A stretch of 37,500 nt of DNA, from the IMG/VR virus record IMGVR_UViG_2713896799_000009, positions 1 to 37,500 of that record, one strand, 5' to 3'. How positions within the stretch are numbered: position 1 is the first letter of the stretch; each line of letters opens with the position of its first letter. The DNA is from a virus (Duplodnaviria; Heunggongvirae; Uroviricota; Caudoviricetes). The notes under the pieces are model-generated. The model searched no databases. It saw only the letters and a program-made list of their open reading frames with translations, and had not been told where the DNA came from. A program made the translations under genes and the position numbers. This document shows positions 22,900-33,326 of the stretch, piece by piece.

Positions 22900-22974
<75 letters not shown>

Positions 22975-22977
22975 ATA

Positions 22978-23053
<76 letters not shown>

Positions 23054-23055
23054 AC

Positions 23056-23132
23056 TGGACCGCCACCGGGGACTCGAACCTCGCACACTCAACTTAAAGG
23101 GTTGACGCTCTTTCCTGATGAGCTAGTGGCGG
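23056..23132 (-). tRNA. tRNA-like element (anticodon-position TTT, Lys-like), possibly a pseudo-tRNA
   Basis: Acceptor CCGCCAC/GTGGCGG, T-loop TTCGAGT, encoded CCA; but C at position 33 and a mismatch in the T-stem. Confidence 0.35.
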
Positions 23133-23133
23133 T

Positions 23134-23209
23134 TGGTGGCCCTTGCTGGATTTGAACCAGCGACCTGGCGATTATGAGTCGCTCGCTCTCACCACTGAGC
23201 TAAAGGGCC
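23134..23209 (-). tRNA. ileZ: tRNA-Ile2 (CAT anticodon, ileX/ileZ-like; tools often label it tRNA-Met)
   Basis: GGCCCTTTAGCTCAGTGGTGAGAGC...CTCATAA...GGTTCAAATCCAGCAAGGGCCACCA is near-identical to E. coli tRNA-Ile2. Confidence 0.8.
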
Positions 23210-27219: not shown

Positions 27220-27375
27220 TTACTCCTCAGGTTCGTAAGCTGTGAAGACAGCGACCTCCGTCTGGCCGGTTCGGATTCGTACCTCGCAGAGGTCTTTCCT
27301 CGTTACCAGTGCCGTCACTATGACGGTTAAACAGATGACGATCAGGGCGATTAACATCGCCTTTTGCTGCTTCAT
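27220..27375 (-). CDS. hokD: Hok/Gef-family type I toxin (HokD/RelF-like)
   Basis: MKQQKAMLIALIVICLTVIVTALVTRKDLCEVRIRTGQTEVAVFTAYEPEE matches RelF/HokD as recalled; an in-frame upstream extension to 27432 corresponds to a mok-like frame. Confidence 0.85.
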   Translation of the reverse strand: MKQQKAMLIALIVICLTVIVTALVTRKDLCEVRIRTGQTEVAVFTAYEPEE

Positions 27376-27999
27376 AGCCTGCTTCTCCTTGCCTTTCGGC
27401 ACGTAAGAGGCTAACCTAGATTTGCCGTTCATAGATTGAGCCTCAGATTAATGTTAAGCGTCTTGTAGGACGCGTAATGTTAACTGGGGCTTTTCTCTAT
27501 CTGCCTTTGGTGTTCATGCCTGAGACAGATAGCCTCAAGCACCCGCAGCCATTCTACTTAACTCCCGTTACCTCGCCAATATAAAATCAATCAGAAAGGC
27601 GATCCATAAGAACAACAGCAAGACAATAAATTGCCATTACAGCTGCAATAGCCAGCGCACATTTGAGAACCAGCACGACAACCTCCTGTATTGGACGTAC
27701 ACCAGTCCTGATAAATATGAGGCTGTCTCATCATTGATGAGATACAACTATTGGGTATAGTTTCTGTGATTTTGTTCTGTAGAAATGGAACACAACAACC
27801 AGTCACCACCAGCACTTCTTTAAATACGCCAAGTCCGACGCAAGCTAACCTTCTAGTCCGCTTTGAGCGAAAAGCAGACTGTCACGCGTTGAAGTTAATT
27901 GTATTACTTAGATAAACACTATCATTTTCCTGACGTTAAGTTGTATCTTTGATAGGATTAAAAAACGTATAGATAGCTTATGCTACTGAGGGAATAAAA

Positions 28000-31812: not shown

Positions 31813-31850
31813 TACCCATGGGTATTTACTTTTTAAATACCTATGGGTAT
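31813..31850. promoter_or_regulatory. Putative left operator: perfect palindrome TACCCATGGGTA plus a near-repeat ATACCTATGGGTAT
   Basis: 12-bp perfect palindrome at 31813-31824 sharing the TACCCA half-site with the right operator; lies upstream of the plus-strand early-left genes. Confidence 0.45.
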
Positions 31851-32035
31851 CCTTCTTTTCATACCAACCCACCCCGCCCCACAGAATGCAGGGCAATACT
31901 TCGAGTTACCAGGCAGTGGTCAGGGGTTAAGTAGCCAGCCCGAGGCGTAAGAACATGACGGCAGGGTTCAACTTTAATAACTATGCAGCAGGTTTTTGTT
32001 CCGCTACCCCGGCGTTAAGGGGAAATGAGGTCAGC

Positions 32036-32350: not shown

Positions 32351-32569
32351 ATGCAGAAACGAGAACCCGTCATCATCGCGCCAGACTATACCGATGATGA
32401 ACTTTATGAGTGGATGCACCAGAAAATTAATGCAGCGCAGGATCTGAAATGGGCCAATGAAGCCAGGGCTAAGCAGGCTGAAAATCTGTCCGCTCTGGAG
32501 CAGGATATCACTAATCTGGAAAAAGCAGCGGCATTAAGCATTGCCAGAATGATTACATACCCGCGTTAA
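32351..32569 (+). CDS. ydfC: YdfC-like protein (72 aa)
   Basis: 72 aa ORF in the ydfA-ydfB-ydfC-dicF-dicB gene order. Confidence 0.65.
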   Translation: MQKREPVIIAPDYTDDELYEWMHQKINAAQDLKWANEARAKQAENLSALEQDITNLEKAAALSIARMITYPR

Positions 32570-32910
32570 TAGCTAACCAACGAAGCTAAGGTTGGTAATT
32601 AAGGAGTTCTCCACGGGTGAGGTGGAGTGCGTGCGCCGGACACGGGTGAGCATCCGGCACTGACAGTTTACTGAAAGGATATTTCCCTGAAAAGTCAGAC
32701 CATAACGCGAAAGCGCACGGCGAGGTAGCTGGTTCATAGATAGCCTGTCGTTAAATTTTCGTCGACCGTGCGCTTCCGGTTGTGGCAATCCGCGAAATGG
32801 CGCGGCGGTAAGTATGGCGGGGTTATTCCTTCCCCCGTTGAGGACACCGGGTTGTCAGGTTGACCATACGCTTAAGTGACAACCCCGCTGCAACGCCCTC
32901 TGTTATCAAT

Positions 32911-32968
32911 TTTCTGGTGACGTTTGGCGGTATCAGTTTTACTCCGTGACTGCTCTGCCGCCCTTTTT
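32911..32968 (+). ncRNA. dicF: DicF small regulatory RNA
   Basis: TTTCTGGTGACGTTTGGCGGTATCAGTTTTACTCCGTGACTGCTCTGCCGCCCTTTTT matches the E. coli DicF sequence as recalled, including the 3' terminator hairpin; located between ydfC and dicB. Confidence 0.75.
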
Positions 32969-33137
32969 AAAGTGAATTTTGTGATGCGGTGAATGCGGCT
33001 AAGCGCACGCGGAACAGTTAAAACCAAAAACAGTGTTATGGTTGGATTCTCTGTATCCGGCGTTAATTGTTAACTGGTTAACGTCACCTGGAGGCACCAG
33101 GCACCGCATCACAAAACTCATTGTTGAGGGCGCGATA

Positions 33138-33326
33138 ATGAAAACGTTATTACCAAACGTTAATACGTCTGAAGGTTGTTTTGAAATTGGTGTCACTATC
33201 AGTAACCCTGTATTTACTGAAGATGCCATTAACAAGAGAAAACACGAACGGGAGCTATTAAATAAAATATGCATTCTTTCAATGTTGGCCCGTTTACGTC
33301 CGATACAAAAAGGATGCTGGCAATGA
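33138..33326 (+). CDS. dicB: DicB cell-division inhibitor
   Basis: MKTLLPNVNTSEGCFEIGVTISNPVFTEDAINKRK... (62 aa) with GAGGG ribosome-binding site; matches DicB. Confidence 0.85.
   Translation: MKTLLPNVNTSEGCFEIGVTISNPVFTEDAINKRKHERELLNKICILSMLARLRPIQKGCWQ

Follow-up and report, generated by a model that had tools for sequence, protein, structure and literature searches.

The ydfC–DicF spacer of a Qin-like prophage corresponds to the known processing region of the dicBF operon and carries a conserved, covarying module with a predicted pseudoknotted fold

The ydfC–DicF interval and its counterpart in E. coli K-12

The interval studied here lies in the early operon of a Qin-like lambdoid prophage, contained in a 37,500-nucleotide stretch of viral DNA, which was analysed as a whole and is referred to as the window. 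The ydfC coding sequence (72 aa, 32351–32569, plus strand) was taken from the ORF list and from the RefSeq annotation of strains EFF60 and K-12. The sRNA DicF (53 nt, with terminator hairpin and U tract; 32911–32968, plus strand) was recognized by the Rfam family RF00039, whose match at 32912–32963 reached 76.7 bits, the gathering score being 48. Few bacterial sRNAs have been known for as long as DicF. It is followed in the operon by dicB (33138–33326, plus strand), which encodes a cell division inhibitor, and the overall order of the operon (dicA-like repressor, ydfA, ydfB, ydfC, DicF, dicB, ydfD) matches that of K-12.

Several features ascribed to the interval (32570–32910) by an earlier sequence-only reading were confirmed. 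The non-coding, hairpin-rich gap between the ydfC stop (32569) and DicF, given there as about 340 bp, is 342 nt long, and the stems listed there, GCCGGA/TCCGGC (32635–40/32653–58), CCGCG/CGCGG (32790–94/32801–05) and GGGTTGTCA/TGACAACCC (32849–57/32877–85), are all present. The high density of hairpins was also borne out by folding of the 396-nt segment 32570–32965, whose energy of −146.5 kcal/mol (z = −2.6) was equalled by one of 100 dinucleotide shuffles. The term “GC-rich” proved apt for the 3′ module described below (59.5% GC), which is the only clearly GC-rich part, but not for the entire interval, where the enrichment is mild (53.7% vs. 50.4% in the window, the 75th percentile among 341-nt windows). 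The AAGGAG motif, which had been placed at 32611, is located at 32601, and the GTG ORF behind it comprises only 10 codons, while a 31-aa ORF on the plus strand (32768–32863) is frameshifted in K-12 through a 1-nt indel. The view that the interval holds no plausible ORF is consequently upheld, and its coding potential was rejected because these ORFs are tiny or frameshifted between strains.

The gap had been considered unusual on the assumption that ydfC and dicF are only about 110 bp apart in K-12. This distance is wrong: in K-12 BW25113 (locus sequence L001) ydfC ends at 1770 and DicF occupies 2112–2163, leaving a gap of 341 nt. Direct alignment of the window with K-12, the very comparison by which the sequence-only reading had proposed to challenge itself, was colinear over 606 columns with 99% identity and a single 1-nt indel, and an insertion relative to K-12 was thus rejected. 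What separates ydfC from DicF is the untranslated spacer that the dicBF operon normally has in K-12, and since the K-12 spacer has 341 nt and is 99% identical, there is nothing “extra” in the window. The K-12-like arrangement was found in 3006 of the 5426 complete E. coli genomes, which covered no less than 80% of a 901-nt query taken from the interval and its flanks, and strain EFF60 was 100% identical to this query. What had been suggested as an extra structured element in the DicF precursor is therefore indeed a structured element of the precursor, but one that K-12 shares, and the remarkable gap was the product of the wrong K-12 distance, the interval itself being ordinary. Taken literally, the earlier observation would mean that about 230 bp had been gained relative to K-12 together with a new independent sRNA gene or small ORF. 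Apart from AAGGAG and its 10-codon ORF nothing speaks for this reading, which is refuted by the K-12 alignment and by the tiny or frameshifted ORFs, and which has practically no chance of being correct. The proposal of an independent unannotated sRNA also had to be abandoned, as no sigma-70-like site was found on the plus strand within 32570–32910, and no internal promoter was found in the K-12 dicBF operon (Ragunathan et al., 2023; PMC10448788).

The region has already been named and studied in K-12: Balasubramanian et al. (2016; PMC5069750) speak of the “long untranslated region containing dicF” in the dicBF operon, and a review (PMC9438474) of the ydfC 3′ UTR. The 5′-end of the 53-nt DicF is generated by RNase E and that of a stable 190-nt DicF species by RNase III (Ragunathan et al., 2023, after Faubladier et al., 1990; PMC10448788), and both species accumulate in stationary phase (PMC10448788). 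A 72-nt form of DicF made by RNase III has been reported as well (PMC9438474, PMC5069750). In K-12, RNase III cleaves approximately 137 nt ahead of DicF, and a subsequent cut in the linker by RNase E frees the 53-nt sRNA. Most K-12 transcripts stop at the DicF terminator and none longer than ydfD was seen (PMC10448788). The sequence printed in Fig. S1B of the same paper corresponds to about 32725–32963 of the window, and counting 190 nt back from 32963 maps the RNase III cut near 32774. The final 135 nt or so of the interval form the 5′ portion of the published 190-nt species made by RNase III, and the interval is a known, experimentally studied RNA processing region, located upstream of DicF and outside the RF00039 family.

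Fold and covariation of the 3′ module

A 116-nt module (32779–32894, plus strand) makes up the 5′ domain of the long DicF form, and a pseudoknotted fold supported by covariation was predicted for it. The module is closed by helix P1, formed by GUUGUGGC (32779–86) and GCUGCAAC (32887–94), and encloses hairpin H1 (CCGCG/CGCGG, 32790–94/32801–05), a 3-bp junction helix (GGU/ACC, 32807–09/32846–48), hairpin H2 (CGGGG/CCCCG, 32818–22/32833–37) and hairpin H3 (GGGUUGUCA/UGACAACCC, 32849–57/32877–85). The pseudoknot would arise by pairing of GUAUGG in the H1/H2 junction (32812–17) with CCAUAC in the loop of H3 (32864–69). The covariance model matched the window at 32776–32901 with 147.5 bits, and this was its sole match there.

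The fold was examined in a model-guided alignment of 35 distinct sequences, where 94.7% of the cells held standard pairs in contrast to 34–55% when the partners were slid by 1–3 columns, and 15 of the 36 pairs had changes on both sides. The conserved and covarying structure among homologues, for which the sequence-only reading had recommended a search, was hence found. None of the 500 shuffles reached any of the observed covariation measures, although such controls overstate the significance for module sequences as closely related as these, and, because the sequences were retrieved by exact motifs, GGCGGTAAG and CAGGTTGACCAT are bound to look conserved. The MAFFT and the 74-sequence alignments gave a similar picture, with overall values of 94.7–95.5% paired cells vs. 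33–56% after sliding and 13–15 double-sided pairs. Compensatory changes were seen in H3 of Izhakiella (UUGUCA/UGACAA to UAACCA/UGGUUA), in the pseudoknot of phage P1 (GUAUGG/CCAUAC to GCAUGG/CCAUGC, with U-G intermediates elsewhere) and in the junction helix of the P7-type copies (GGU/ACC to GGC/GCC). RNAalifold, run blind to the structure, recovered H1, H2, H3, the junction helix and part of helix P1. In H1 only one-sided changes occurred, and the support for helix P1 is partly confounded by the likeness of the upstream and downstream partners of its GUUGUGG segment. Considering these results, we concluded that the module at 32779–32894 has a well-supported, conserved and covarying predicted pseudoknotted fold.

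The assignment of the interval to a known RNA family was rejected by the Rfam scans. The scan proposed by the sequence-only reading gave no match inside 32570–32910 to DicF or to any other family even at E ≤ 10, no family of Rfam 15 matched the module at the same threshold, and the scans of 12 related loci at gathering scores placed no family on the interval; the window and the related loci yielded only DicF, C4, isrK, tRNAs, sok and a sub-threshold STnc100. A full-text literature search with strings of the module returned unrelated primer sequences only. Neither the pseudoknotted fold nor its spread beyond Qin-like prophages is described in PMC5069750 and PMC10448788, while older papers on DicF or phage P1 may describe the block. 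The fold is best regarded as a modest lead, unlisted in Rfam.

Flanking stems, sRNA cassettes and distribution

The ydfC-proximal part of the spacer (32572–32698, plus strand) folds into four small hairpins according to both the MFE and the centroid structures, at 32572–96, 32609–27 (CUCCAC/GUGGAG), 32635–58 (GCCGGA/UCCGGC) and 32660–98 (CUGAC../..GUCAG). These hairpins are kept in Qin-type relatives with different upstream genes (L093 and L160) and are confined to the Qin-type group. Changes on both sides of a pair were not seen in them. They are followed by a long imperfect hairpin of about 20 bp predicted at 32700–32786 (plus strand), the 5′ and 3′ arms of which are CCAUAACGCGAAAGCGCACGGCG and GACCGUGCGCUUCCGGUUGUGGC, respectively. 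The published RNase III cut site (about 32774) falls in its 3′ arm, and the hairpin is probably the RNase III substrate. Its duplex energy of −32.1 kcal/mol can be compared with a mean of −24.2 and a best value of −33.1 kcal/mol in 100 arm shuffles; since the best shuffles match it, this energy does not by itself set the hairpin of the window apart. A comparable stem of about 20 bp was predicted in the lambdoid-type members examined, with different arms (for example CACAACGAUGAGAGCA/UGCUCUCUUCGUUGUGG), loops of 31–128 nt and energies of −26 to −34 kcal/mol, and it is weak in Serratia symbiotica. The stem energy exceeded that of every arm shuffle in five relatives (Erwinia, Izhakiella, Trabulsiella, L036 and L051), while the best shuffle equalled it in the window and in the other Qin-type and cdtI-type copies, for which the case thus rests on the recurrence of the arms. 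The phage P1/P7 and pPE4 copies lack a long RNase III-type stem.

Between the module and DicF lies a U/A-rich linker (32895–32910, plus strand), predicted to be single-stranded, which the DicF 5′-end and the literature identify as the site of the RNase E cut; its sequence differs between cassette types. A second long-range stem was read from the sequence on the 3′ side of DicF (32972–33120, plus strand), where GUGAAUUUUGUGAUGCGGUG (32972–91) can pair with CACCGCAUCACAAAACUCAU (33101–20). This stem, which is outside the interval but part of its processing unit, is probably the RNase III site that gives the 3′-end of the 72-nt DicF form, and an analogous stem can be drawn downstream of the terminator in other family members. 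The weak STnc100 match falls on the same segment (32975–33115), with 38.6 bits against a threshold of 47. As predicted, two RNase III-type stems would bracket the module together with the sRNA.

BLAST searches against phage genomes showed that the last 100–125 nt or so of the interval are conserved alone in otherwise unrelated phages. The identity of the module was 76–82% in P1, P7, RCS47 and SJ46 and about 90% in cdtI, Stx2c phages, Ayreon and 2H10, and the module was also present in the Salmonella phage F1055 and in a phage deposited as Actinobacillus pPE4. A motif scan detected it in at least 120 IMG/VR contigs with 68 distinct core sequences, and it was carried by 504 records of P1-like plasmids. 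In the scan of one genome per species it was found in Escherichia, Shigella, Citrobacter, Trabulsiella, Erwinia tracheiphila, Izhakiella and Serratia symbiotica. The pattern matches in Pseudomaricurvus, Syntrophomonas, Methylophilus and other non-enterobacterial genomes, as well as in L009, failed the covariance model and were discarded as chance. The search anchored on DicB, aimed at avoiding the bias of motif retrieval, found the module in 75 of 80 relatives and added little, all of them being near-identical (98–100% in DicB); in the other five the module was missing through a contig end, insertion of IS elements or replacement of the upstream DNA. The module is a well-supported predicted fold in the 5′ domain of the long DicF form that is common to Qin-like, cdtI/Stx2c-like and P1/P7 phages.

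Each element carries one module, which always lies within a repressor-controlled early operon in a promoter-proximal position. In phage P1 it is found about 30–50 nt downstream of the C1-controlled Pban promoters and is followed by a strong terminator and then by 2.6 kb of leader, largely non-coding, up to ban. The cdtI copy is located about 280 nt past a pL-like promoter and about 350 nt past cI, and the pPE4 copy stands between a dicA-like repressor gene and kil. A hairpin with a U-run occurred downstream of the module, 20–134 nt away, in all 73 distinct contexts, and the constant module is followed by at least 14 unrelated terminator-type sRNA cassettes, of which DicF is one. The mean pairwise identity among 16 cassette types was 84.5% for the module, 62% in the 75 nt that follow and 64% in the 80 nt before it, a comparison biased in favour of the module by the use of its own motifs to fetch the loci.

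Possible roles of the module and its relation to known systems

The identity of the interval with the dicBF spacer is nearly certain. For the module we favour, with moderate confidence in the mechanism, the role of a maturation and stability cassette of the sRNA precursor. The ydfABC-dicF-dicB RNA, which contains the interval, originates from the DicA-repressed promoter dicBp. The alternative partners of GUUGUGG, the 5′ strand of helix P1, can be read from the sequences as (C)CAUAAC or CACAAC upstream and (G/A)C(U/C)(G/A)CAAC downstream. Before cleavage, GUUGUGG would be held in the RNase III stem by its upstream partner; after RNase III had cut the 3′ arm of the long stem, generating the 190-nt species, it could re-pair with the near-identical GCUGCAAC or CCACAAC downstream, closing helix P1. 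The new 5′-monophosphate end would thereby be tucked beside a helix of a compact pseudoknotted domain and only the U/A-rich linker would be exposed, so that RNase E could cut at one defined place. Such an arrangement would account for both the long life of the 190-nt form and the single RNase E cut. Some observations fit this model less well. It is not obvious why a guide of processing should require loop and junction nucleotides that hardly vary, and the module is better conserved than the sRNA that it would serve (84.5% vs. 62%, in the biased sample). Moreover, in phages P1 and P7 the module is retained some 30 nt away from the Pban start without the RNase III stem, which means that the coupling to RNase III is not universal. 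The defined structure and the natural compensatory variants make the role of the 190-nt DicF directly testable.

The constant position of the module in repressor-controlled early operons, proximal to the promoter and upstream of an intrinsic terminator, raises the possibility that it is a cis-acting processive antiterminator or anti-Rho RNA, similar to put in role, which would ride on RNA polymerase and allow early transcription to pass the DicF-type terminator and the long untranslated segments on its way to dicB/kil, exo, int or, in phage P1, ban. The module may in this way explain how these operons pass their own terminator. The 2.6-kb, mostly untranslated leader that phage P1 must cross to reach ban, the locations near the pL-like promoter in cdtI and after the dicA-like gene in pPE4, and the single copy per element fit this reading; an N-like gene is not evident among ydfA, ydfB and ydfC, and the strongly conserved unpaired nucleotides would suit a conserved host machine. 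Nevertheless, we consider it rather unlikely: the module has no similarity to put in sequence or by the covariance model and forms a multi-helix pseudoknot rather than two stem-loops, its excision together with the sRNA, as one stable RNA between RNase III stems, is more in keeping with a product than with an element bound to polymerase, and K-12 transcripts mostly end at the DicF terminator, none being seen beyond ydfD (PMC10448788). The same excision and the accumulation of the stable 190-nt species in stationary phase (PMC10448788) would agree with the idea that the module itself is the product, which binds or titrates a host protein such as Hfq, ProQ or a ribonuclease, while the sRNA serves as terminator and Hfq handle. 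Flanking RNase III stems could release the module as a unit, an Hfq-enriched interval lies upstream of dicF, and conservation is higher in the module than in the sRNA cassettes, although this last comparison suffers from the way the loci were retrieved. RNase E removes the module from DicF, no similarity to any Rfam protein-binding RNA was found, and this reading appears improbable.

The module combines a conserved core and covarying stems around it with a terminator that lies 10–90 nt downstream in every case, as would also be expected of a riboswitch-like sensor acting on the DicF terminator by mutually exclusive pairings. In the MFE structures, the 3′ strand of the Qin-type helix P1 and the linker can pair with the 5′ half of DicF including the 5′ arm of the terminator, and the 5′ strand of helix P1 has an alternative partner upstream. 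This candidate antiterminator pairing is Qin-type only and is not conserved in the cdtI, Erwinia and P1 cassettes; on this ground a classical riboswitch was rejected, and with no match to Rfam riboswitches and no candidate ligand the sensor is a very unlikely explanation. Equally far-fetched is that the block is a recombination linker of mosaic phage genomes with no function at the RNA level. It does lie, in many phage backgrounds, where variable genes on its upstream side meet variable sRNA cassettes, and most E. coli copies are highly identical, but six helices are kept paired by compensatory changes, including separate events in the P1/P7 lineage (a UA to CG change each in the pseudoknot and the junction helix), which points to selection on the RNA structure. 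Beyond guiding DicF maturation, the module might represent a new class of phage cis-regulatory RNAs acting on the host transcription or RNA-decay machinery. This broader interpretation is unlikely but not negligible. One of its forms would be a processive antiterminator put-like in role but unrelated to put, and the variable sRNA cassettes would be passengers of the constant domain.

Among known elements, RfaH ops and boxA were considered because of GGCGGTAAG and the UGCUCUU-like strings. The ops element (GGCGGTAGnnTG on the non-template strand) was rejected, as the module has GGCGGTAAGTATG with one extra A, and in P7-type copies a C replaces the essential T6 of ops, a change that is compensated at the RNA level. 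As for boxA, a fixed single-stranded element of N-utilisation and rrn-type sites (GCUCUUUA), non-Qin members have UGCUCU(C/U)U-like strings in the long stem's 3′ arm; they co-vary with the opposite arm (UGCGCUU in Qin) and are predicted to be double-stranded. The hallmark of put is read-through of terminators dependent on the zinc-binding domain of the RNA polymerase β′ subunit. The put elements of HK022 and HK639 (PMC9378689, NC_016158) resemble the module in being promoter-proximal structured RNAs of early operons located upstream of terminators, and the put phages and the module-bearing lambdoids are alike in showing no obvious N protein. The put element consists of two stem-loops of about 70 nt and is present as putL and putR in HK022, whereas the module has six helices in approximately 116 nt and a single copy. 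The covariance model of the module gave no match in HK022 and HK639, and membership in put was rejected because the HK022 putL/putR and HK639 putL-like sequences share no alignable similarity with it. Short strings common to put and the module (ACCAUGCG and GGGUU..CAGG.UGA) stand in a different order and look like chance.

In the annotation of phage P1 (AF234172), a “dicF-like region” (68791–68892) overlaps the 3′ half of the module (H3) and the terminator, so its resemblance to the dicF region had been recognized before. The annotation carries no structure or function, and the similarity is that of the module and not of DicF proper, the phage P1 terminator hairpin (GCCCAUCUUCGGGUGGGC) being unrelated to DicF. 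The closest relative of the interval is the K-12 190-nt DicF precursor itself, with the same locus, flanking genes and DicF, 99% identity and a length within 1 nt. In a wider sense, DicF resembles the RNase E-matured Hfq sRNAs MicL, CpxQ and SroC (PMC9438474), which are likewise terminator-proximal sRNAs freed from longer RNAs. Upstream stem-loops set the RNase E site in these RNAs (PMC9438474), and DicF is similarly preceded by structured RNA before the single-stranded cut site. DicF differs from them in having an RNase III step first and an upstream domain that is predicted to be a multi-helix pseudoknot, and this domain, unlike theirs, is more conserved than the sRNA it precedes and stands in front of at least 14 unrelated sRNA cassettes.

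The dicB promoter region and the stem between DicF and dicB

The intergenic region between the dicA-like repressor gene and ydfA contains a near-perfect, 16-bp palindrome, TACCCATGGGTA…TACCTATGGGTA, at 31813-31849, which is probably the repressor operator of the dicB promoter. The same palindrome was reported as a terminator by the terminator scan, which is a false call. The untranslated leader found directly 3′ of the dicB promoter (~31870-31955, …gcagggcaatacttcgagttaccaggcagtggtcaggggttaagtagccagcccgaggcgtaagaacatgacggcag…) is also kept in phage pPE4 (L005 ~2310-2405), where the module, that is, the conserved predicted pseudoknotted fold, comes almost straight after it and ydfABC is not in between. 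This segment could represent a second element of the leader that is conserved.

On the 3′ side of DicF, sequence complementarity revealed a predicted long-range stem, in which GUGAAUUUUGUGAUGCGGUG (32972-91) pairs with CACCGCAUCACAAAACUCAU (33101-20), the latter immediately preceding the dicB ribosome-binding site. This pairing probably constitutes the RNase III site generating the 72-nt DicF, and it may also influence dicB translation. The Rfam scan of the window gave an STnc100 match at 32975-33115, below threshold (38.6 bits vs 47).

Other RNA genes of the window

A full-length sok antitoxin RNA was detected on the minus strand at 27370-27544 (RF01794, 110 bits), which implies that the prophage has a hok/sok-type toxin–antitoxin locus. 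The RNA family scan of the window also located four tRNA genes clustered in about 310 nt of the minus strand (22903-23209), one of which was much weaker (44 bits).

Variation of the module and the sRNA cassette in the relatives

Damaged copies of the module occur naturally. In the Shigella-type L142 and L058, helix P1, the closing helix, is without its 5′ strand and AGGCACACAAC directly abuts H1, the first hairpin, while in L190 and L212 the module or its 5′ part is lost where unrelated DNA, read as putative insertion sequences, joins in or near the module.

The variable terminator-type hairpin following the module (the sRNA cassette) includes a Shine–Dalgarno sequence and a start codon inside the terminator hairpin (AGGAG…AUGUUCUACCG) in the Erwinia, Izhakiella, Trabulsiella and Serratia-type copies (L154, L155, L151, L140 and L051; the start codon is GUG in L051). 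The reading frame passes through the terminator, suggesting that translation initiation and termination are coupled. In pPE4 the cassette is tandemly duplicated (L005 2620-2780), and the units present twice are the 3′ end of the module (3′ strand of helix P1), the linker, the terminator hairpin and the AAAGUGAAUUUUGUGAU motif. The early region of this phage is E. coli Qin-like, although it was deposited as an Actinobacillus phage.

tRNA-like elements in the flanking stems

In cdtI/Erwinia-type relatives (L004 ~2700-2720, L154, L155, L036 and L051), the second long-range stem, which lies 3′ of the sRNA terminator, carries GGGCUCAUAACCC in its loop. This sequence, absent from the window, matches the initiator tRNA-fMet anticodon stem-loop exactly. 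The 90-nt loop of the upstream RNase III-type stem contains two hairpins, GGCAGGUUCAAUUCCUGCC and GGUCCGUUCAAUUCGGAC, which resemble tRNA T-arms (L154, L155 and L051).
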